DNA of 56,265 nt from a virus (Duplodnaviria; Caudoviricetes), in IMG/VR virus record IMGVR_UViG_3300036857_000084, positions 1 through 56,265 of that record, one strand, 5' to 3'. Below, piece after piece: positions 13,546-56,265 of this stretch. The first letter of the stretch is position 1; the number at the start of each line of letters is the position of its first letter. The notes below the pieces were generated by a model that made no database searches, was not told the origin of the DNA, and saw nothing but the letters and a program-made list of their open reading frames with translations. The position numbers and the translations under genes were made by a program.

Positions 13546-14180
13546 TGGCACAGATCATTCAGATGCGTCGTGGAACCGCCGCCGAGTGGACTTCAGCCAA
13601 CCCGATTCTTGCCGAGGGTGAGATCGGTGTTGAGAAGGATACTTTCAAGTGGAAGGTTGGCGACGGGGTTCAGCATTGGACGCCATTGCCGTACGTGACT
13701 GGCGCACCAGGTCCAGCTGGTACACCGGGCGCTCCTGGTCCGACAACAACTTGGAAGGGTGCTTACTCAGGCGTCACAGCGTACGCCAAGTACGATGTGG
13801 TCTCGTTCAGCGGCTCAAGCTATATGGCGAATGCCGCAGTGTCTGCCGGGACTGCTCCGCCAGCAGCACCTTGGGTCTTGATGGCGCAGCAAGGGGCGCA
13901 AGGCCCACAGGGCAATCCCGGTCCGGCTGGTATTCAGGGTGCGCAGGGCATCAAGGGCGACAAGGGCGACAAGGGCGATACTGGCGCTACTGGCGCTACT
14001 GGCGCCACCGGTCCTCCGGGCGTGCCACTCCGGACTGTAGTGAGTTTGCCCGACCCAGGCGTGGCTGGAGATATGGTTTTGTTCGATGGTACAGTTTGGT
14101 TCAACGACGGAGTGACTTGGCAGCAGGTCGGGACTGGTTCTGGCGGCTCCAACGCTTTTGCCTTCTTCATGGGGAGATAG
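13545..14180 (+). CDS. Collagen-like tail fibre with Mtd/hyaluronidase-type N-terminal domain
   Basis: IQMRRGTAAEWTSANPILAEGEIGVE.DT...K.GDG...W..LPY; G-X-Y repeats; WKGAY...Y...DVV module. Confidence 0.82.
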   Translation: MAQIIQMRRGTAAEWTSANPILAEGEIGVEKDTFKWKVGDGVQHWTPLPYVTGAPGPAGTPGAPGPTTTWKGAYSGVTAYAKYDVVSFSGSSYMANAAVSAGTAPPAAPWVLMAQQGAQGPQGNPGPAGIQGAQGIKGDKGDKGDTGATGATGATGPPGVPLRTVVSLPDPGVAGDMVLFDGTVWFNDGVTWQQVGTGSGGSNAFAFFMGR

Positions 14181-21961: not shown

Positions 21962-22342
21962 ATGGCAACACACGATAACAGACTCGAATACACGCGCGAT
22001 CAGCTATTGGAACTCGCGCTGACGGACAACCCGCTCAAGCGGCTGATGCTGGCGACCGTGGACTGGGCGCCGTTCCAGCATCTCGAACTCGCGGGGCAGT
22101 TGAAGATGTCCGGCGATGAGATGGTCGCAGCGTCGAATGAGTGGCGCGAAGCGCATGATCCGGCGAAGATGCCGTCCATGCATCTGGAACTCGACGCGGC
22201 CGCCAGAAAGGCAGCCGAGACAGCTACCAAGGCCCTGATCGACGCGGCCGAGGCGGCGTTTCAGCTATACAGAGTCACCCAACTATGCGAGTGCCGACGG
22301 TGCCAGGCAAGGCGTCAGCGTCGCAACGCAAAGTCAAACTGA
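21962..22342 (+). CDS. Hypothetical protein
   Basis: AGGAGG RBS; C-terminal CxCxxC. Confidence 0.65.
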   Translation: MATHDNRLEYTRDQLLELALTDNPLKRLMLATVDWAPFQHLELAGQLKMSGDEMVAASNEWREAHDPAKMPSMHLELDAAARKAAETATKALIDAAEAAFQLYRVTQLCECRRCQARRQRRNAKSN

Positions 22343-24168
22343 AGTTCAGGACTCCTGAGACAAGGCAAACCTGGGCCGTGATTGGACCATATTGCGAAAT
22401 CAGCGCAGACGGGCGCAAGATTGACGTCTGGTTCCCGTACGCGCCAGACACAAAGGATGCCGTCAAGGCACTCCCTGGACGGTTCGTACCCAAGGAGGAT
22501 GGAGGACCATACTGGACTGTTCCGCTTGACCTAGATGTCGCTCGGCGGTTGCGTGAGATCTTTGGTGACGATCTTGACATGGGTCCGAGCATCGAGCGCT
22601 GGGGATGGGAGCAGCGCAAGATCGAACGCAATCTCGCGAAGATCGCCATAGCCGACGATGCGGGGTTGAAGGTGCTCCCCGAGGTACTGCCGGACTTGGC
22701 TGAGTTCTTGCGACCGTACCAACGGGCAGATGTTGCTTTCATGGCACATGGCAACATCATCAACGCCAATGAGCCGGGCCTCGGCAAGACGGTTGAGACC
22801 ATTGCGGCCGTGTTCGAGGCTGAGCTAGACGATGGACCACAACTCGTGGTGGCGCCCAAGACCAGCCTCGGCACTGTCTGGCAGTTTGAGCTTGACGAGT
22901 GGGTGGGCGATCCCGTCTACATTCTCTCTGGCGATACCACACGTGGGGAACTGGACACCATTTTGGGTAAGGTTCTCGCACACCAGAAGCGCCGTGAGCC
23001 ATTCTGGTTTGTGACGACCGCAGCACAGTTGCGCAAGGGCCTACCTGCGTTGCTCGCGAAGATGAAATGGAAGACGATCATCATCGACGAGTACCACACT
23101 ACCGGCCTCGTTACTGTGTCTGGTGATCTGAGCAAAGGCACGCAATTCGGCAAGCTCGTGCGCGGCCTCAAGCGTGAGCGTCTGTTCCTGGTCTCGGGTA
23201 CGCCAATGGGCGGAAAGCCGATCAAACTCTGGGGCGCACTCCATCATATCGATCAGATCAAGTTCTCGTCCAAATGGCGATGGGCGGAACTCTGGCTCAA
23301 CATCGAGGCAGGTTGGGACGGGCACAAGAAGATTGGTGGCATTCAGCGCGGCCGTGAGGATGAGTTCTACAAGGCGCACGCGCAGTACATTGTCAGACGG
23401 CTCAAGGCAGAAGTTGTGCCCGAGCTACCGCCGATCCAACGCATCAATGTCTGGTGCGATATGACGAAAGCGCAGCAGCGCCAGTACGCGAAGATGGAGC
23501 GCGACGCGGAAGTCAGGATTGACGAGTATCGGCTCAGCGCCGTCGGCGTGCTCGCGGAGTACACGCGCCTCAAGCAGTTCGCGAACGCAGAGTGCTCCAT
23601 TGCGACGCGGCTGAAAGCAGACGGCGAGGAAGAAGTCAGACTCATTCCGATGAACTCTGGCAAGCTTGACTTCTTGGTCGAGAGACTGGATGAGGTTGGC
23701 ATTCGCAAGAAGGATGACGAAGGCGAAGCTGTCGCAGTCGTCGCGAGCCAGTCTCGGCAGATGGTGGATTGGGTCTGCTTCATGCTCAACAAGATGGGCA
23801 TCAAGGCCGAGAAGATCACTGGCAAGATTAGTGAGCGCAAGCGCAATGACTTGGTTCGCCGGTTCCAGAGCGGCACAAATGCCCCGCGCGTGCTCTGCGT
23901 CACGACGACCGCTGGCGGAGTTGCGATCACACTCGACCGGGCTGACACCATCCACATCCTCGATGAGACTTGGAACCCTGACGATCAGGAGCAGCTAGAG
24001 GATCGCGTTCACCGCATCAGCCGCATCCACCAAGTGACGGCGTACTACTACAGGTCGATTGGGACCGTTGAGGAGGACATCTATAAGGTAGCGCAAGACA
24101 AGCACATCACGACCAAGAACATCCTCGATGTGCGACGGCAGATCTTCAAGGAAAGGGGAGCAGATTAG
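22285..24168 (+). CDS. SNF2-family helicase/ATPase (start uncertain)
   Basis: LRPYQ, NEPGLGKT, IIDEYH, SGTP, GGVAITL, WNP...Q.EDR.HR motifs. Confidence 0.92.
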   Translation: MRVPTVPGKASASQRKVKLKFRTPETRQTWAVIGPYCEISADGRKIDVWFPYAPDTKDAVKALPGRFVPKEDGGPYWTVPLDLDVARRLREIFGDDLDMGPSIERWGWEQRKIERNLAKIAIADDAGLKVLPEVLPDLAEFLRPYQRADVAFMAHGNIINANEPGLGKTVETIAAVFEAELDDGPQLVVAPKTSLGTVWQFELDEWVGDPVYILSGDTTRGELDTILGKVLAHQKRREPFWFVTTAAQLRKGLPALLAKMKWKTIIIDEYHTTGLVTVSGDLSKGTQFGKLVRGLKRERLFLVSGTPMGGKPIKLWGALHHIDQIKFSSKWRWAELWLNIEAGWDGHKKIGGIQRGREDEFYKAHAQYIVRRLKAEVVPELPPIQRINVWCDMTKAQQRQYAKMERDAEVRIDEYRLSAVGVLAEYTRLKQFANAECSIATRLKADGEEEVRLIPMNSGKLDFLVERLDEVGIRKKDDEGEAVAVVASQSRQMVDWVCFMLNKMGIKAEKITGKISERKRNDLVRRFQSGTNAPRVLCVTTTAGGVAITLDRADTIHILDETWNPDDQEQLEDRVHRISRIHQVTAYYYRSIGTVEEDIYKVAQDKHITTKNILDVRRQIFKERGAD

Positions 24169-25761: not shown

Positions 25762-26139
25762 ATGAGACAAGCTATAGCACTCGCCGTCTGTCTCTTGCTG
25801 GGATGCTCAGCATTCGCTATCGCCAATCGTGTCGAACCCGCAGCTCAGCCTGCGGCAAAGACAAAGGTCAAGACCGTGCGCGGGAAGACCGGCAAGCGCG
25901 GTCCGCGCGGTCTGCGTGGCCCACAGGGACTGCCGGGTGACCCCGGTCCGCCAGGTGATCCTGGACCGCCTGGCAATGATGGGGCTCCCGGTAATGACGG
26001 GGCTCCCGGCCAGGACGGACAAGATGGTGCTCCCGGTGCTCCCGGCCCTGCCTGCCCGGATGGGGCGACGGCAACGCAGGAAACAGTCATGCTCGATGGT
26101 GGCGGTACGGCCAAGGCCGTGCTCTGTGTGGTGCCGTAA
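25762..26139 (+). CDS. Secreted or anchored collagen-like protein
   Basis: N-terminal hydrophobic helix, long G-X-Y run, CPDG...C tail. Confidence 0.78.
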
Positions 26140-26354: not shown

Positions 26355-26475
26355 AGAGGCTCGCGCTAGGCCGAGCGCGTCATCGCGGTTCCGTTGACTG
26401 GATACGGTGTATCTCCAGTCCGCCGCCCAGTCAGCGGAGCCGCCACCTTTCTACTCAGGTCTGGAGCAAGTAGAA

Positions 26476-27486
26476 GTGACCACTCTCGTACGAACATCTG
26501 AGCGCTCAGCGTTCAAAAGGTGCCGATGGGCATGGGACCTTTCTTTCGAACACCGCTTGCGTCAGCGGCGCGACGCCCCTGTTCTTAGGTTCGGGAGCCT
26601 GGTGCACGAGGCACTCGCGATGTACTATGTGAAGGGCCGGAAGCGCGGCATGCATCCAGCCAAGGCGTTCATGAAGGTCTACGACGCGGACGTCAAGGTA
26701 TCTGGAGAGTTCGCCGTGTTTGCGGAGACTGGGGAGTTTCTTGAGGGCGAGGAATGGGTTGACGCCCGTCAGCTTGGCATCGACATGCTAGAGATGTATG
26801 TCGAGCGTTATCGTGGGGATCGAGACTGGGAAGTCCTCGCGACAGAGCAGCCGTTCCAGGTGCCCGTCTATAACCCGCGCAACGGGCGCTACATGTTCAC
26901 GTATACAGGCATTCTCGACGTGATCATGAAGCAGCGCTCGACTAGCCGCATATACATCTGGGACCACAAGACTTGCCGGGCAATCGCAGATGTGCTCTTT
27001 GGGATGCCGCTCAACGATCAGTTTGGTTCCTACTGGACGTTTGGGAGCGAGTGGCTGAGGACTGAGGGCATTCTGCGACAGAGCCAGTTCAAGGATCTCA
27101 GCGGCCTGCTCGTCAACATGCTGCGACGCGCGAAGCGTGACGACCGTCCGCAGAACGCCGACGGTCACTATCTCAACAAGGACGGGACGGTCAGCAAGCG
27201 TCAACCGGCAGAGATGTTCCATCGCGAGCCGACGTACAGGTCGGAGCGCGACAAGGAAGAAGTGCGTCGTCGCGCACTGAATGACTTTCGCGAAATGGAA
27301 ATGGTCCGGCGCGGGGAGCTACCAGCAGACAAGAGTCCATCCTTGTGGCACTGTAAGGGGTGTCCTTGGCTCGACGTTTGTGAGCTTCACGAAACAGGCA
27401 ATGATTGGAAGCCGATGTTGGCAACAACCACGGAGGAGTGGGACCCTTACGCCCAGCACGAGATTGAGTACGACGAGAAACGGTGA
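26476..27486 (+). CDS. PD-(D/E)XK (Cas4/RecB-like) exonuclease
   Basis: RTSER..FKRC, FG..VHEAL, TE..F, GILD...WDHKT, C..CP...VC. Confidence 0.87.
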   Translation: MTTLVRTSERSAFKRCRWAWDLSFEHRLRQRRDAPVLRFGSLVHEALAMYYVKGRKRGMHPAKAFMKVYDADVKVSGEFAVFAETGEFLEGEEWVDARQLGIDMLEMYVERYRGDRDWEVLATEQPFQVPVYNPRNGRYMFTYTGILDVIMKQRSTSRIYIWDHKTCRAIADVLFGMPLNDQFGSYWTFGSEWLRTEGILRQSQFKDLSGLLVNMLRRAKRDDRPQNADGHYLNKDGTVSKRQPAEMFHREPTYRSERDKEEVRRRALNDFREMEMVRRGELPADKSPSLWHCKGCPWLDVCELHETGNDWKPMLATTTEEWDPYAQHEIEYDEKR

Positions 27487-27713
27487 TGGCGACAAACACA
27501 ATTGCGATGGTAGCGGCCTTGCTGGGATTGCTACTCGGCATGAGCGGATTCCTACTTGGGAAGCGGGCGCTCCGCAAGGCGAAGCAGTCAGATGAACTGG
27601 CGCGCAGGCAGTCCTTGCGTCCGTTCTTGAACGGGCACTCCTCCATTGGGAGTTGGAAGCGCGCCGCCGACGAGAGTCAGCAAGCGAGTGAGAGGAGGCG
27701 GCTGAATGGCTAA
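27483..27713 (+). CDS. Small membrane protein
   Basis: N-terminal TM helix; overlaps its neighbours. Confidence 0.55.
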   Translation: MMATNTIAMVAALLGLLLGMSGFLLGKRALRKAKQSDELARRQSLRPFLNGHSSIGSWKRAADESQQASERRRLNG

Positions 27714-28509
27714 GCCGAAAGAGATTCAACCCGTAATGACGCCGGTCAACAAGATCTGCTTCATGTTGTATGGTCCGCCGGGTAACGGCAAGACCAGACT
27801 GGTCGGGTCGAGTGGTCCCAAGACCCTGATCGTCAAACCGCCAACCGATCACACCGAGAGCATTCGTGTCGTCGGCGCGGAGAAGTGGGAGGTATATGAC
27901 TGGTCGGAGATGTACAACGTCCGCGAGTTCGCCAAGCACGAGGGCGCGAAGCATTACAACTGGATCTGGCTTGACTCGATCAGTCTGTTTCAGGACACCG
28001 GCCTCGACGACATCTGGGACGGCACCATTGCGCGCTATCCGCATCGGGCTGAGTATACGCTTGATAAACTGGAGTACGGCATCAATATGTGGCGGCTCCA
28101 GCAGTGGGTGCGGGACATGGTCAGTTTTCCTGGTTTCAATCTCGGCATTACGGCGCACCCTGCCGAGCTTCTCAATCCTGTGACGAACGAGACCAAGCTC
28201 CAGCCCTGGGTCCAAGGCAAGAACATGTCGACGAAGATCCAGGGCTACATGAACATCGTCGGCTACCTGGAGGTAGTCACGGACGACAAGGGCAAGAATC
28301 GACGTGTGCTTCGTACGCACGGGACTGAGCGCTACGAGGCCAAAGACCAGTTCGATGCGTTCGGCGAGGATGGCCGACTAGTCGATCCAACTATGCCCAA
28401 GATTGAGGAGGCCATCGAAGCGGCACGAGCAAGCAGACGTAACGGTACACGACCAAAGCGCGGCTCAGCCCGACGACGGCGAGTTCAGCGCGCAACAGCA
28501 AGGAGGTAG
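27706..28509 (+). CDS. AAA_24/Sak4-like ssDNA-annealing ATPase
   Basis: YGPPGNGKT Walker A, WLDSIS, TAH, IVGYL, AKD; lies between exonuclease and SSB. Confidence 0.85.
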   Translation: MAKPKEIQPVMTPVNKICFMLYGPPGNGKTRLVGSSGPKTLIVKPPTDHTESIRVVGAEKWEVYDWSEMYNVREFAKHEGAKHYNWIWLDSISLFQDTGLDDIWDGTIARYPHRAEYTLDKLEYGINMWRLQQWVRDMVSFPGFNLGITAHPAELLNPVTNETKLQPWVQGKNMSTKIQGYMNIVGYLEVVTDDKGKNRRVLRTHGTERYEAKDQFDAFGEDGRLVDPTMPKIEEAIEAARASRRNGTRPKRGSARRRRVQRATARR

Positions 28510-28515
28510 CCGGGC

Positions 28516-29652
28516 ATGGCCCGAGTGAAGTACGACGTTCGTGGTGTTGAGGCCGGTCAGCGCAAGGTCCCGTCGCCCAACGTCTATCAGGCGAAGATCA
28601 CCAGCGCGGACATCACCAAGCCCGAGGGCAAGGATGAGCGCATCGAGCTAGTGGTCGAAGTCATCAACGACTCTGACTTCAATGGCGCGAAGCTGTACGA
28701 GTACGTGAACCTGGAGTCGGACTCAGCCGCATGGAAGCTGCGGGAGCTTCTGGAGGCGGCTGGTGTCGTAGGTGAGCGCAAGTCATCGGAGTCGGGGACA
28801 CTCGACACCGACAAGGACCTGGTCGGCAAGATCATCGGCATCAAGACGTTCATCCGTCCGGCCGATGACGCGCGAGGGTTCGACGAGCAGGCCCGTATCC
28901 GTCGCATGTTCCCGGCAGATGGTGCCGCCGGGAGCGGCGAATCATTCGACGAGGAGGACACCGACGTGGCCGCAACCACTGAGGACGAGTACGACGACAT
29001 GCCGCTGGCGAAGCTCAAGGCGGAGTTGTCGGAGCGTGACCTGCCGACGCGCGGGTCCAAGAAGGCCCTGATCGAGCGGCTGCGCGAGAGCGATGCCGAG
29101 GAGCAGGAGGACGAGGAGCCTGAGGACGAGGACGGCGAGGAGTACACGTGGGAGGACGTGGCCGAACTCGACAAGGCTGAGCTGAAGCAGCTCATCACGG
29201 ACGAGGAACTCGGCATCAAGGTGCTCCGTTCCACGGACGTGGACGAACTCCGTCTGGAGGTGGCGGAGGCGCTGGAAATCGAGGACATCCCCGAGGATGA
29301 GTCTGAGGAGGATGAGGAGCCCGAGGACGAGGGTGACTACTCCTGGGACGACATCAACGGCCTCGACCGCAAGGGCCTGCGCGAGCTCATCAAGGAGGAA
29401 GAACTCGGCATCCGCGTGACGCCCAAGTCGGATCTGGACGCCATCAAAGCGAAGGTCGCAGAGGCCCTGGAAGTCGAGGTGCCGGCCGAGGACGAGGCTG
29501 GCGATGACGACGACCAGGACGACTACGAGGAGTGGTCGCTCGATGACCTGAAGGAAGAGCTGGGTCAGCGCAGCCTCTCCGTCAAGGGCACCAAGCGTGC
29601 GCTCGTCGCGCGTCTGCGCAAGGACGACGCCGAGGAGGACAAGCCCTTCTAG
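28516..29652 (+). CDS. SSB-like (DUF669-type) protein with SAP/helical repeats and acidic linkers
   Basis: YQAKI...AAWKLRELL...DLVGK OB-like region; LKAELSERDLPTRGSKKALIERL and LKEELGQRSLSVKGTKRALVARL SAP motifs; ends ...DKPF. Confidence 0.75.
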   Translation: MARVKYDVRGVEAGQRKVPSPNVYQAKITSADITKPEGKDERIELVVEVINDSDFNGAKLYEYVNLESDSAAWKLRELLEAAGVVGERKSSESGTLDTDKDLVGKIIGIKTFIRPADDARGFDEQARIRRMFPADGAAGSGESFDEEDTDVAATTEDEYDDMPLAKLKAELSERDLPTRGSKKALIERLRESDAEEQEDEEPEDEDGEEYTWEDVAELDKAELKQLITDEELGIKVLRSTDVDELRLEVAEALEIEDIPEDESEEDEEPEDEGDYSWDDINGLDRKGLRELIKEEELGIRVTPKSDLDAIKAKVAEALEVEVPAEDEAGDDDDQDDYEEWSLDDLKEELGQRSLSVKGTKRALVARLRKDDAEEDKPF

Positions 29653-29664
29653 GGCCTCAACAAA

Positions 29665-29885
29665 CTTGGAGAGGACGGCGTAGGCTAAGGACAGTTAGGC
29701 GATAAGCCATGTTGGTGCCGGAACGTCAGCCAGACGTGGAACGCAGTCCGGTAAATGGCCCGAGCGGCAGCCATAGGCATGGTGAAATGAGTGAGCGGAG
29801 CGTAACGCCGGGCCGCTTGTGGGGTGGGCTTGGCCGGTACTACGCCGGTCCCAGCACCCGGGAATCCTTGGTCAGTCTCTCCAAG
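29665..29885 (+). ncRNA. Putative structured non-coding RNA (~220 nt), family unknown
   Basis: At least 8 nested helices closed by CTTGGAGAG/CTCTCCAAG; several G-U pairs; occupies a 255-bp intergenic gap. Confidence 0.6.
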
Positions 29886-29907
29886 ACTACTTGCGGGGGC
29901 AAGCACT

Positions 29908-32619
29908 ATGGCCGCTAGCGCCAGGCAACTGTTGGAACCCTACCTGGCGGGCGCCGAGCGTCCGAATGGAGATGTAGACATGGTCTGCCCGCTCCATGAC
30001 GATGCTCGGCGTTCGGCCGTGGTGAACTTCAAGACGCGCGAATGGAACTGCTTCGCCAGCTGCGGTGGCGGAACACTCGACCTACTCCTCAAGCAGCGCA
30101 GCGAATGGCTGCCGCCCGACCGCGAGCCGGGATCATCTAGTCAGAATGGCGACAAGCGACCATTTCCTGATTCGGCCCGAATGGATGGGTGGCAGTCTGC
30201 GTTGCTAGGCAACAGCGATCTTCTGGAGTGGCTCGAAGTCCGCCGTGGGCTGAATACAGATACGATTCAACGACATGGGATTGGTTGGAACGGTCAACGT
30301 TTCACAATCCCTGTCTACGATGAAACAGGCAAGCTCGTCAACATCAGGCAGTACTCGCACACACTTGACCCCAAGATGAAGAATTGGCCGGGATGGGGCA
30401 GCCCTCCGCGCCTGTATCCAATCGGGGTGTTCCTCGACGATCCAAAGGAGGTGATGATCTGCGAAGGTGAACTTGATGCGCTGATTTGCAACCAGCAAGG
30501 ACTCCCAGCGGTAACTGGCACGTCGGGAGCTAAGAGCACGGGGCGATGGCGCGAGAATTGGTCCGACTGGTTCAAGGGCTTGACTGTCTATGTGTGCTTC
30601 GACCGCGACGCGGATGGGCGACGCGCGACACGCAGGATCGTAGACAAATTGACCAACGTCGCAGGCAAGCTTCTGGTCATTGATCTGCCGTATCCGATGG
30701 GATCGCGGAAGGATCTGACCGACTACTTCATCGACGGCGGCACGGTCTCAAAGCTCAAGAAACTGGCGAAGCCGATCAGTGAAGTCAAGGATGAACTTCT
30801 CTACACCCCGGCGGACTATGAGGAACTCCGGTCGGGCAACATGGAAGGGAAGTCAGTCGAGGTGGTTGGGACTCTTGCCTCAATCTTCTCAACGCAAATC
30901 CTGCTCCCTCAACGGTTGGAAGCGCGGTGTAATTATGACTGGGACCCCAAGCGGTGTGCCGTATGCCCAGTGGGTCAGAGAGGTGGAGATCTCAAGCTCC
31001 CGATTGGGGATTCCCATGAGCTCCATCTTGAACTCCTTGGCGCAAGCGGATCTGTTGAAAAGCGGAATCAGCTGTTCAAGCGCGCTACAGGCGCTCCGCA
31101 CAACTGCCCCAAGGTCGTTGTCACCCCGACCTATCACTCGGCCTGGGACTGTGAGATCAGAAACGGAAGCAACCTTGCCGAAGAAGCATACCCGGTGGTT
31201 CTCAGGCATGAGGGTAAGCCTCCGGGTCTCAATCAGGCGTACAGATTTCGCGGCAGGCTTCGGGTTTCGCCACGTGGTCAACGGGCCATCTTCATGGCGA
31301 CCGAGTGTGAGCCTGCGGTTCAAGACCTTGACTCCTTCAGCCCGACGGCTGATGACGTCCAGAGGGCACAAGCGTGGGCGGCGCGTTTTCACGGATCACC
31401 AGATGAACGTCTTGAGCAGATTTCGGAACAACTCGAATACCATGTGACGGAAATCTATGGACAACGACTCCTACACATGGCAACAGATCTGGTCTATCAT
31501 TCAGTGCTACATTTCCGGTTTGGGGGAAGTGTCGTCACTCGTGGCTGGATGGAGCTACTCGCCGTCGGAGAAACACGTAGTGGTAAATCTACGACTGCCG
31601 CCAAACTGCTCGATCTGTACGAACGAGGTCACTACCAGTCCTCTGAGAACGCATCCGTCGCAGGACTCCTGTTCGGAGTGGACAAGCGCCTCGGCTCAGG
31701 TCGCGAAACCTGGGGAGGATCAGTTGGTGTTCTTCCACTCAATAACCGTGGACTCGTCGCGCTCGATGAGGCACAAGGACTACGTACAGAACAGATTGCG
31801 CAGATGTCTGATATGCGCTCGCGCGGTGTGGTCCAGATCAGCAAGATCCGTGCGGCTGAGGTTCAAGCGCAAGTTCGGTTGATGTGGCTTGCTAATGGCC
31901 GTAAGTCGCGTTATGCCAATGGGATTGACGCGCTCCGCGATCAGATGGGACAGGCCGAGGATCTGGCTAGAGTAGACATTCCGCTCTACATCAAGGGCAA
32001 TGTCGGGAGAGAGCTAGACAAGGCACAAAAGACATATGGAGGACTGGATGAAGAATCGAAGGCAGTCCTGCAGTGGCTCGTCCTCTGGGCGTGGTCACGC
32101 AGGGCAGATGACGTCAGATGGACCCGCCCGGCGCGGACAGCAGTGTGGAAGCACAGTAAGGCTCTTAGTGATCAGTTCACAACTACAATCCCCATCTTCC
32201 AGCCGAACGAAGCGGGGGTCAGGCTTGCTCGGATGGCTGTGGCTCTTGCTGCTCGCCTGTTTTCTACGAAAGACGGGCATCGTCTGATCATCAAGTCAGA
32301 GCACATCGAGGCTGCCCGCAGACTGTACGAGCGGTTCCTGGGAGCGCGCGAGCTAGGGCTGATCGAGATCAAGAAGCAGGAGATCCTGGTTGAGAACGCA
32401 GAGGAGGATCACGGACCTGAACTAAAGGAATTTCTCCAAACCGTCCCCCTCAACGTACGCCAGCAATTGGCGATGGGAGAGTTGCCTCTTTTTGGTTTCG
32501 GTGCCGTAGATGCAGGGGGTATCTACATCACGAAACTTAGCGGCATGCATGCAGTGACGGTCGATAACGCCAAGTACAATGTGGCCCCGTGGGCCATGGA
32601 GATTGCGCGGAGCATATGA
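29908..32619 (+). CDS. Primase (Zn finger + TOPRIM) fused to MCM-like helicase
   Basis: CPLHDD...C...C; ICEGELDAL, FDRDADG; second Cys cluster; GETRSGKST, ALDE. Confidence 0.87.
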   Translation: MAASARQLLEPYLAGAERPNGDVDMVCPLHDDARRSAVVNFKTREWNCFASCGGGTLDLLLKQRSEWLPPDREPGSSSQNGDKRPFPDSARMDGWQSALLGNSDLLEWLEVRRGLNTDTIQRHGIGWNGQRFTIPVYDETGKLVNIRQYSHTLDPKMKNWPGWGSPPRLYPIGVFLDDPKEVMICEGELDALICNQQGLPAVTGTSGAKSTGRWRENWSDWFKGLTVYVCFDRDADGRRATRRIVDKLTNVAGKLLVIDLPYPMGSRKDLTDYFIDGGTVSKLKKLAKPISEVKDELLYTPADYEELRSGNMEGKSVEVVGTLASIFSTQILLPQRLEARCNYDWDPKRCAVCPVGQRGGDLKLPIGDSHELHLELLGASGSVEKRNQLFKRATGAPHNCPKVVVTPTYHSAWDCEIRNGSNLAEEAYPVVLRHEGKPPGLNQAYRFRGRLRVSPRGQRAIFMATECEPAVQDLDSFSPTADDVQRAQAWAARFHGSPDERLEQISEQLEYHVTEIYGQRLLHMATDLVYHSVLHFRFGGSVVTRGWMELLAVGETRSGKSTTAAKLLDLYERGHYQSSENASVAGLLFGVDKRLGSGRETWGGSVGVLPLNNRGLVALDEAQGLRTEQIAQMSDMRSRGVVQISKIRAAEVQAQVRLMWLANGRKSRYANGIDALRDQMGQAEDLARVDIPLYIKGNVGRELDKAQKTYGGLDEESKAVLQWLVLWAWSRRADDVRWTRPARTAVWKHSKALSDQFTTTIPIFQPNEAGVRLARMAVALAARLFSTKDGHRLIIKSEHIEAARRLYERFLGARELGLIEIKKQEILVENAEEDHGPELKEFLQTVPLNVRQQLAMGELPLFGFGAVDAGGIYITKLSGMHAVTVDNAKYNVAPWAMEIARSI

Positions 32620-33389: not shown

Positions 33390-34068
33390 CGAGCCGATCC
33401 AGCCCATCGTGTCGATAGACATTGACGGGACGCTCGGCGACTATCACCGGCACTTCCTGAACTTCGCCTCGGCGTACATGGGCCTACGAAAGCAGGACTG
33501 GATTCAGCCCGAGGAGTACAACGGCGTGCGCGGGTTCAAGGACTGGTTCCTCGACCGGACGGAGCAGCCTGCTGACGTCTGGTACGACATCAAGCTCGCC
33601 TACCGGCAAGGAGCACAGAAGCGGAGCATGCCGGTTCGACCGTGGGCGGCCGGACTGACCAGGCAGGTGAAAGCACTCGGGGCTGAGCTGTGGCTTTGTA
33701 CTACTCGGCCATATCTCCGGCTCGACGGCATTGATCCAGACACGCGCTTCTGGTTGGCGCACCACGGGATCGTCTACGATCATCTTCTCTACGACGAGCA
33801 CAAGTACATGGAGCTAGCGCGGCGCATTGATCCAGAGCGCGTCTGCGCCATTCTCGATGATCTGCCAGAGGATCTGATCGAGGCCGGAAACATCTTCGGA
33901 AGGATGGTGTGCATACTGATCCGAGCGAGTCACAATGTCAAGGCAATCGACATGGACTTGCCCTTCGAGGACGTTCACGAGGGCATCTCCGCATACAACA
34001 AGATCAAGGAGCGTGTGGATGGCTGGTTCGCAGCACACGAGGAGCATGGCACTCCCGTCAGATCCTGA
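33370..34068 (+). CDS. HAD-superfamily nucleotidase/phosphatase
   Basis: DIDGT motif I, TTRP motif II, K, LDD motif IV; AGGAGG RBS before TTG. Confidence 0.82.
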   Translation: MRCTACSEPIQPIVSIDIDGTLGDYHRHFLNFASAYMGLRKQDWIQPEEYNGVRGFKDWFLDRTEQPADVWYDIKLAYRQGAQKRSMPVRPWAAGLTRQVKALGAELWLCTTRPYLRLDGIDPDTRFWLAHHGIVYDHLLYDEHKYMELARRIDPERVCAILDDLPEDLIEAGNIFGRMVCILIRASHNVKAIDMDLPFEDVHEGISAYNKIKERVDGWFAAHEEHGTPVRS

Positions 34069-34351
34069 TGATCCATTCTCCGCAGTGTTGGACCAGGTGA
34101 TGGAGAAGTACCAGGATCGCTCTGCCGAGTATCCCAAGGACGATCCCTGGGGCAACGGCGGCTACCGGGCACAGCTCGTGGAGATGCGCAAGAAGCTGGA
34201 TCGGCTCTGGGTCTACTTCAGCGCCGACCCGGACGCAGGTCACCCTCTGAAGCCAGAGGACGATGGGATCGACTTGATTGCGTACTGCGTGTTCTTCTTG
34301 ATCCTGTTCCGTCGAGGCGACCGCGATGGGAGCTGGCCTTGGCCGACGTGA
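34046..34351 (+). CDS. Nucleotide-modification-associated (Nmad1/DUF1599-like) helical protein
   Basis: Y...W...G....V.M..K.DRL...ED...DL..Y pattern. Confidence 0.62.
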   Translation: MALPSDPDDPFSAVLDQVMEKYQDRSAEYPKDDPWGNGGYRAQLVEMRKKLDRLWVYFSADPDAGHPLKPEDDGIDLIAYCVFFLILFRRGDRDGSWPWPT

Positions 34352-51938: not shown

Positions 51939-52134
51939 TGTCGGCAAGGGTCAGCAAGGACTGCCGGGCCCACGCGGTCCTGCTGGTCCTCCTGGGGAGC
52001 GCGGCCCTGCCGGTCCCAAGGGCGACAAGGGTGACACTGGCGGCACGACTTGCCCCGCAGGCTACGCACTCATCGATCTGGTCATCAATCATCCAGGTGG
52101 GCAGACAACCATTCTGACCTGCGAGAAGCAATGA
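51826..52134 (+). CDS. Membrane-anchored collagen-like protein (lysis cassette)
   Basis: TM/signal helix, G-X-Y run, CPAGY...C tail. Confidence 0.72.
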   Translation: MRLPVLIIAMSLILAGGAGFLTAQALSQNEPTKTVTIDVGKGQQGLPGPRGPAGPPGERGPAGPKGDKGDTGGTTCPAGYALIDLVINHPGGQTTILTCEKQ

Positions 52135-56239: not shown

Positions 56240-56265
56240 GATCTACAGGTTGTGGTTCTCGACCA
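56240..56265. repeat. Terminal direct repeat, identical to 1-26
   Basis: Exact 26-nt match to the window start. Confidence 0.95.

Follow-up and report, generated by a model that had tools for sequence, protein, structure and literature searches.

Introduction

Some phage replication genes are controlled through folded sites in their leaders: the pseudoknot leader of T4 gene 32, the operator hairpin of gene 43 and the RegA sites are all translational operators. Other folded sites of phage and plasmid genomes act differently, for instance the put sites of HK022 and the nut sites of lambda, which are antitermination RNAs of two short stem-loops located near promoters, and the G4/phiX-type and plasmid ssi sites, which are single-strand initiation or primase-recognition hairpins acting as DNA. 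To our knowledge, the control of replication genes in phages outside these model systems is almost unknown. Here we describe an element that fills a non-coding gap of 255 nucleotides (nt) between a gene for a SAP-domain protein and a primase-helicase gene in a complete virus record of 56,265 bases (IMG/VR record IMGVR_UViG_3300036857_000084; Duplodnaviria, Caudoviricetes), the whole of which we call the window. The gap is conserved in a related phage more tightly than the silent sites of the neighboring genes, it contains a hairpin kept by compensatory changes and part of it is present in a soil RNA library.

The element shares features with each of these systems. As in the T4-type operators, a putative structured RNA lies 5' of a replication gene with a weak, hairpin-held ribosome site and beside the gene of a DNA-binding protein, but those operators are ~20-70 nt long and have known protein partners, whereas the element takes up 221-255 nt and has no sequence or Rfam match; by analogy, such operators and leader structures, as known from T4 genes 32 and 43, may be its closest functional counterparts. 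With put and nut it would have in common that a conserved folded RNA in a long co-directional phage operon acts on its own transcript, although put and nut lie near promoters and a scan of 29300-30300 found no terminator-like site downstream of the element. Phi29 pRNA, c4 antisense RNA and GOLLD/ROOL are, as the element may be, multi-helix phage RNAs that accumulate above the level of mRNA, but they have Rfam families and the element matches none at gathering score. The G4/phiX and ssi sites are likewise conserved one-strand hairpins near replication genes, and compensatory change would be expected in them too, but they act as DNA, whereas the G-U pairs of the element, its stronger + strand fold and its RNA fragment lean to RNA.

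In position the element is most like a gap in the nearest cultured phages, the Microbacterium phages of the genus Krampusvirus (cluster EF), whose primase is ~30% identical to that of the window. In both, a SAP-type protein gene (in Krampusvirus, a SAP-like hypothetical protein), a gap and the primase/helicase gene follow one another in genomes of ~56 kb in which all genes point forward and the replication modules are similar (PMC7302621). The Krampusvirus gap is unannotated and ~490 nt long (Hiddenleaf, L169:2487-2973; Kate, L172:987-1473; Sparcetus, L170:969-1464). Around a variable center, three CCACAAT repeats face three ATTGTGGGG repeats, an arrangement conserved between divergent members, and the gap looks like an origin or operator; Rfam gave only chance microRNA-hairpin matches on it. 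Such inverted arrays of a 7-9-nt repeat set it apart from the gap of the window, in which there is no repeat array. Neither the element nor the Krampusvirus gap was described in the literature that we searched, which included passages of PMC7302621. Because the nearest cultured relatives are Microbacterium phages, the host of the window phage is likely an actinobacterium.

Results

A constrained, non-coding gap before the primase-helicase gene

An earlier note on this DNA, made by a model from the letters alone, had pointed to a 255-bp gap ahead of the primase-helicase gene, and the gap is there exactly as described (Table 1). The full element can be read in two sequences, the window and locus L002, which belongs to a complete record (G001, 56,318 bases) collinear with the window. 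The primases of the two phages are 91% identical, and their DNA is 84.6% identical over the 7.2-kb locus and 80.2% over aligned coding DNA genome-wide. Within the gap, 28 of 255 positions differ (26 substitutions and 2 single-base indels), or 11%, and because the synonymous-site difference (pS) is 0.40 in the Sak4-like gene, 0.28 in the SAP gene and 0.50 in the primase gene (0.48 over its first 300 codons), the gap is held about 3-4 times tighter than the neighboring silent sites. The last 350 nt of the SAP gene, which lead directly into the gap, are only 70-78% identical to L002.

Could this conservation be that of a small protein? An open reading frame (ORF) of 69 aa, 29709-29918 on the + strand, is open in both phages with 57 of its 69 residues alike and 12 changed, an antisense ORF of 73 aa runs over 29685-29906, and open frames also occur in the large gaps that other lineages have here. 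Against L002, omega ranges from 0.30 to 2.5 over the six frames of the gap and is 0.48 for ORF 29709-29918, compared with 0.065, 0.30 and 0.074 in the Sak4-like, SAP and primase genes. Its substitutions are distributed 4/10/8 over codon positions 1/2/3 (manual count), and its pS is only 0.17 against 0.28-0.50 next door, so its silent sites are constrained too. No Shine-Dalgarno (SD) sequence precedes 29709, Pfam gave no match to the product, and a search of 5.8 billion proteins found the ORF itself and its L002 copy only. Long antisense open frames are expected at 60% GC. Conservation as protein of either this ORF or an N-terminal extension of the primase had been named in the earlier note as what would speak against an RNA; the omega of the ORF is as given above, and the extension, which would begin at GTG 29824, contains a stop codon in L002. 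From these comparisons, the gap appears not to be maintained as protein-coding sequence, and the element is very probably both functional and non-coding.

A covarying hairpin and a closing helix

The earlier note had drawn eight nested helices (R1 to R8), a CACCC/GGGTG pseudoknot and a hairpin just before the primase ATG, and all 10 consist of standard or G-U pairs only. Set against L002, the eight-helix drawing is partly upheld: R5 is strongly supported and R1, R3 and R8 are consistent, but R2, R4 and R6 lose pairs and RNAalifold prefers other long-range partners (Table 1). Two features stand out. The first is the hairpin at 29716-29753, which takes 10 of the 26 gap substitutions and in which three pairs are exchanged for other pairs in L002: 29720/29749 (G-C to A-U), 29722/29747 (A-U to G-C) and 29731/29738 (C-G to U-A). 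When substitutions were placed at random within this arm with their clustering kept, at least three compensatory pairs arose in 0.2% of 3000 trials (P = 0.002); when they were placed over the whole gap (400 trials), the corresponding figures were 0.25% for the best of two minimum free energy (MFE) folds and 4% for the RNAalifold fold. The second is the closing helix, P1, which is present in every fold, the MFE folds of both sequences among them, and in which L002 has U-G for one U-A pair and G-C for the tenth, G-U pair.

The L002 MFE fold agrees with the RNAalifold consensus, and both fit the two sequences, with 3 compensatory changes, 7-8 one-sided changes that keep the pairing and 0-2 broken pairs, none of them in the consensus. 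All the one-sided changes in the consensus are of the kinds G-U to G-C or U-A to U-G, which would be mismatches on the other strand and so fit an RNA on the + strand. The consensus energy is also stronger on the + strand (-89.6, vs -71.4 on the - strand), although the + strand is G-rich and gains in any case. That G-U pairs favor a + strand RNA over a DNA structure, as the earlier note had argued, thus receives support from the type of change and the energy of the consensus, but is tempered because G-T pairs are tolerated in DNA. On balance the element is probably an RNA.

Just before the primase ATG there is indeed a hairpin and no clear SD sequence. Most other genes of the window have GGAGG-type ribosome sites, and the primase gene has only a G-run inside the loop of this hairpin. 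In a more distant relative, a contig of soil run X6, the letters beyond the equivalent of 29879 are different ones at the place of 29890-29903, and GAGGA stands before the ATG.

Two 16-nt words within the gap, 29717-29732 and 29758-29773, are 81% alike and 41 nt apart (direct repeat D4) and may reflect an internal duplication of a hairpin module.

Table 1. Features of the gap and its surroundings, in window coordinates; pairing changes are relative to L002, and MFE z-scores were computed against 200 dinucleotide shuffles each
Feature	Position	Strand	Observation
Non-coding gap, 255 nt	29653-29907	+	Between SAP gene stop (29650-29652) and primase-helicase ATG (29908)
Most conserved core	29750-29870	+	4 substitutions in 121 nt (29783, 29809, 29812, 29818)
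Covarying hairpin	29716-29753	+	Three compensatory pairs; both sequences fold to it alone
Closing helix P1	29665-29674/29876-29885	+	Perfect 9-bp inverted repeat I11 plus tenth, G-U pair
Helix R5	29717-29722/29747-29752	+	2 compensatory changes
Hairpin R8	29793-29798/29813-29818	+	Its G-U becomes G-C
Helices R1, R3, R8			Pairing kept through one-sided changes
Helices R2 and R4			One pair lost each
Helix R6			2 of 5 pairs lost
Helix R7, CACCC/GGGTG pseudoknot, pre-ATG hairpin			Never vary
Invariant hairpin	29832-29850	+	7 pairs, 5-nt loop; same in both phages
Pre-ATG hairpin CTTGC-GGGG-GCAAG	29890-29903	+	Four bases 5' of ATG; G-run is sole SD-like sequence; invariant
Exact 113-nt insert	29700-29812		X4 soil metatranscriptome, 154-nt contig, depth 25.2, 0 differences
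MFE, gap	29653-29910	+	z = -0.81; 38/200 shuffles fold as well
MFE, gap	29653-29910	-	z = -0.22; 74/200 shuffles fold as well
MFE, element	29665-29885		z = -1.59; 11/200 shuffles fold as well
MFE, insert	29700-29812		z = -0.01; 91/200 shuffles fold as well
MFE, L002 copy			z = -0.95; 36/200 shuffles fold as well
Helicase	22285-24168	+	Replication module
Exonuclease	26407-27486	+	Replication module
Sak4-like annealing protein	27706-28509	+	Replication module
SAP-domain protein, 378 aa, two SAP domains	28516-29652	+	Directly upstream of gap
Toprim + MCM-type primase-helicase, 903 aa	29908-32619	+	Directly downstream of gap

A fragment of the element in a soil RNA library

Words of 29500-30100 occur in 18 sequencing runs, two of which are RNA libraries, and contigs of four runs (X3, X4, X5 and X6) were aligned on 1001 bases around the locus. 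In X4, a soil metatranscriptome, one contig contains 113 nt of the gap without a difference (Table 1), namely the covarying hairpin plus half of the conserved core. The insert is flanked by 20 and 21 letters that match nothing at the locus and are adapter-like; we take them to be Illumina adapter ends. If that reading is right, the first mate would read the - strand, as it does for a + strand RNA in most stranded libraries. The other X4 pieces on the 1001 bases are three of 35-38 nt with 5 differences each, which therefore seem to come from other organisms, and the flanking 900 nt have no exact cover, although uncovered parts in X4, X5 and X6 are no evidence of absence. An exact insert at such depth between flanks that have no exact cover points to a short molecule with defined ends that is far more abundant than the flanking mRNA.

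A lineage-specific insertion

Searches with the primase-helicase gave 160 related loci in IMG/VR and metagenomes, to which we added L163, and an nhmmer search over these 161 loci (the Krampusvirus loci lying outside it) found the element in L002 only. Word scans of IMG/VR with the element returned the L002 contig and otherwise seed-length chance matches, and primase relatives at 56-62% identity (P0002-P0006) were not found among IMG/VR or GTDB genomes. In 121 non-redundant related loci, the spacing between the upstream gene and the primase gene is at most 30 nt in 99, 31-100 nt in 14 and more than 100 nt in 8. Because 99 of the 121 have so tight a junction, the element is best explained as a lineage-specific insertion and, on this comparison, seems confined to a small clade. 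Seven of the eight loci with more than 100 nt are not L002, and in the six of these that we inspected (five distinct sequences, L109 and L110 seemingly being one) the gap is an open reading frame. Several of the 14 loci with intermediate gaps hold one strong hairpin. Thus, among the relatives the primase junction takes four forms: tight spacing, a single hairpin, an iteron array and the conserved 255-nt element.

Soil DNA contigs extend the clade slightly beyond the window and L002. Two further soil DNA runs, X5 and X6, contain pieces of the conserved core at a likeness of at least 80%, the matches covering 29750-29859, 29822-29879, 29830-30073 and 29819-30057. In the X6 contig that matches 29822-29879, the end of the SAP gene is joined to this piece by 206 other letters that replace 29596-29821. 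Other X5 and X6 contigs have the last ~40 bases of the SAP gene in common with the window (one is free of differences over 42 nt, window 29614-29655) beyond which their letters are unrelated. A mosaic boundary lies at this gene end, and different modules follow it in different phages.

Gaps of 60-80 nt with one strong GC-rich hairpin, followed in some by a T-run, were seen at L163:2927-2988 and also in L015, L021, L031 and L124, which suggests a terminator or attenuator at the primase junction of those phages. A 19-mer scan of GTDB with the conserved core gave three actinobacterial matches with likeness over 20-33 nt only: L173:4586-4604 and L174:4111-4129 in Planotetraspora and L175:1942-1960 in Streptomyces. 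In both Planotetraspora loci the likeness reaches 30-33 nt (91-93%) and lies just 5' of one gene, the product of which is presumably an adenosine deaminase, judging by its motifs. All three are probably chance matches, of which we would expect ~4 by our own rough estimate.

No match to described RNA families or mobile elements

The earlier note could not match the element to tRNA, transfer-messenger RNA (tmRNA), RNase P or a known riboswitch, and database searches agree. No family in Rfam 15 reached its gathering score anywhere in the window. At E values up to 10, the 601 nt around the gap gave one match (Ms_AS-4, 15.5 bits vs a threshold of 50), the 258-nt gap sequence none and the L002 copy two at chance level; the best of these sub-threshold matches have E values of 7.7-8.8 and belong to unrelated families, and no ribozyme family was matched at E<=10 in either the gap or the L002 copy. 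Of what a riboswitch would need, the gap has a conserved core and a G-run inside a hairpin ahead of the ATG, but neither a terminator-like site in 29300-30300 nor an aptamer known to Rfam was found. Run at its normal threshold, ARAGORN found no tRNA or tmRNA gene in the window. At the 80% threshold it proposed a 'tRNA-His' at 29780-29859, which we regard as noise: the acceptor stems of the window and L002 differ and there are 69 such matches in the 56 kb. A miniature inverted-repeat transposable element was also considered. Terminal inverted repeats of 9-10 bp are present, but no second copy was found in the window, the IMG/VR scans or the GTDB scan, and G001 likewise has no second copy, only one 24-nt chance match.

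Discussion

The element belongs with the structured non-coding elements found in phage operons, but it is narrowly distributed and lies outside the families described in Rfam 15. What, then, is it for? A constrained non-coding insert that contains a covarying hairpin and is bounded by a closing helix, before a gene with a weak ribosome site, with a copy in an RNA library and at a junction that is tight in most relatives, leads us to a folded RNA domain of the operon transcript. Specifically, we give an even chance to a structured + strand RNA domain in the leader of the primase-helicase gene, whether it is cis-regulatory, a stable processed RNA or both. From this combination of observations we infer the global fold, the strand, an action in cis and any ligand or protein partner. 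In this scenario the element would be transcribed as part of the all-forward replication operon, and P1 would bring the upstream stop codon and the start region of the primase gene together around a folded core, in which the arm 29716-29753 would be kept by compensatory change and the core 29750-29870 by sequence. The weak G-run ribosome site of the primase gene would be held in its small hairpin, so that the RNA domain could set the translation of the primase-helicase and/or the processing and stability of its mRNA, and a nuclease-resistant piece, at least 29700-29812, may accumulate.

A number of results weigh against such a domain, or at least against its details. If an unusual fold is taken to have an MFE z-score of about -3 or lower, neither the gap, the element nor the L002 copy has one, all lying within the range of their shuffles (Table 1), an outcome that the earlier note had listed as refuting its reading; by energy alone, the folding is what a sequence of 60% GC gives. 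The 601 nt contain 16 inverted repeats, among them the perfect 9-bp repeat at the ends. The MFE fold of the window, scored on L002, gains no compensatory change; 4 one-sided changes leave the pairing intact and 11 pairs break. The consensus fold costs the window ~19 kcal/mol relative to its own MFE fold, which makes its long-range pairing tentative. Covariation, which the earlier note had proposed to seek in homologs, was thus found for three pairs of one hairpin, but every other helix is invariant or changes on one side. A control in which 3' letters were swapped between the two sequences, and which with two rows is powerless, reached the observed values in 66 of 500 shuffles when scored on the consensus and in 250 of 500 when scored on the earlier drawing. 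Pairing of the core at 29756-29776 with the primase start at 29906-29923 (repeats I4 and I12) was considered and rejected: it is no better than with a shuffled start (P = 0.63), lies mid-range among other gene starts and genome tiles, and loses one pair in L002.

Further points concern the transcript and the conservation. The RNA support is one contig in one run, perhaps made up of PCR duplicates of a single fragment, and the start, end or strand of an RNA cannot be proved from contigs. A scan of 29300-30300 by consensus matches, from which the promoter type of the host may differ, found no promoter-like and no terminator-like site, and no phage-promoter repeats were seen among the direct repeats of the window. 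L163, with a primase 49% identical and an upstream gene with the same C-terminus, lacks the element and has a gap of 62 nt with one hairpin. Finally, identity between the window and L002 is patchy: in other gaps, as roughly called, it runs from 0.61 to 0.98, and several blocks are 95-100% identical, so recent recombination could inflate the conservation of the gap. One further patch of this kind (window 34069-34338 and 33862-34111) is 97-100% identical to G001 amid ~82% surroundings; it was either exchanged recently or is under strong constraint, part of it being roughly called non-coding. Overall, the proposal of the earlier note that this is a new, unannotated non-coding RNA or regulator keeps its footing in the conservation, the non-coding character, the three compensatory pairs, the RNA contig and the absence of an Rfam family, but not in the folding energy.

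Of the alternatives, a DNA replication element is possible, though we think it unlikely. The gap would then be an origin, or a site at which the adjacent Toprim-MCM primase-helicase is loaded or primes, with hairpins in unwound + strand DNA, and transcription could prime or activate initiation. Its location directly 5' of the replicative primase-helicase gene, inside the replication module, would suit this, as would the CCACAAT and ATTGTGGGG repeats that divergent Krampusvirus members keep at the same junction; the gap also has TTGTGGGG at 29817 and TTGCGGGG at 29891, and compensatory changes would preserve a hairpin in single-stranded DNA as well. Against it, the gap showed no iteron family or repeat array, and the window contains no excess of the Krampusvirus word (36 matches vs 40.7 expected), the first copy of which is altered in L002. 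The gap, with a GC of 0.61 vs 0.60 for the genome, has no AT-rich part, and GC skew, uninformative here, shows no turn. The many G-U pairs and the G-U to G-C changes suit RNA better, even if DNA tolerates G-T, an exact RNA-library fragment exists, and in 99 of 121 related loci the junction is too tight to accommodate an origin.

Rather less probable is a trans-acting small RNA of ~113 nt or slightly more (29700-29812), processed from the operon transcript and directed at targets of the host or the phage, for example as an anti-defense, decoy or regulatory RNA. The discrete X4 insert, with its adapter-like ends, its depth and its flanks free of exact cover, is what such an RNA would leave, and it includes the covarying hairpin and half of the core. 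However, its ends (29700 and 29812) fall within helices in each of the two candidate folds, it folds no better than its shuffles (Table 1), the conserved core continues past it to 29870 and it is known from one contig of one run. It has no promoter-like or terminator-like site in 29300-30300; the sole TANNNT-like word ahead of 29700, a candidate promoter, is destroyed in L002. No target was found, and duplex energies were not above background.

That the element has no function of its own seems improbable to us. It would then be a spacer that arrived lately by insertion or recombination, or the remnant of a small gene, shared as a young block and with helices typical of 60% GC. The MFE z-scores within the shuffled range, the mosaic identity between window and L002, the restriction to two genomes in the collections searched and the divergence of the X5 and X6 contigs after a shared SAP gene end all fit this. 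Yet the flanks of the gap are not young, to judge by the SAP gene end and the first 300 primase codons; moreover, the three compensatory pairs (P = 0.002-0.04), the 3' part of the element kept in more distant X6 contigs and an RNA fragment enriched over its flanks speak for constraint. A small protein gene is very improbable, given the omega, codon-position pattern and lack of relatives of ORF 29709-29918 and the ease with which antisense frames arise at this GC.

Returning to the folded RNA domain, we can tentatively go one step further and suppose an undescribed class of ~220-nt phage RNAs closed by a 10-bp helix and inserted between two replication genes that are usually close together, be it a ligand or protein switch timing the primase-helicase, a self-processing RNA with a stable 113-nt product acting in trans, or an RNA that primes or licenses replication at an origin for which the Krampusvirus relatives have iterons in this position. 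If the element is truly an RNA regulator or a stable RNA, it would be a compact system, open to experiment, for learning how a lytic soil phage sets the timing or dose of its replicative helicase, and it would add a family absent from Rfam, although its reach is limited by a distribution of two genomes and a few metagenome contigs.

Gene order and other features of the window

Every long ORF of the window is on the + strand (Table 1), and the primase-helicase gene is followed by genes for a protein of unknown function, a polynucleotide kinase, a DNA polymerase and a ThyX-like protein. The gene upstream of the gap had been called a single-stranded DNA-binding protein (SSB) in the earlier note, for which we found no support: sequence searches of Pfam, PHROGs and PDB matched its product to SAP domains (residues 158-191 and 336-374, with acidic repeats D3 and D15 between them) and to an unnamed PHROG, with no OB-fold or SSB match.

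Collagen-like Gly-X-Y coding repeats (D1, D2) occur in three separate genes, at 13899-13995, 25924-25982 and 51955-52042, which probably encode tail or fiber proteins. The record has a terminal repeat of 26 bases (1-26 / 56240-56265), whereas the collinear record G001 has a different start point; rather than marking true ends, the repeat may have arisen as an overlap in assembly, if the genome is circularly permuted like those of the cluster EF phages.

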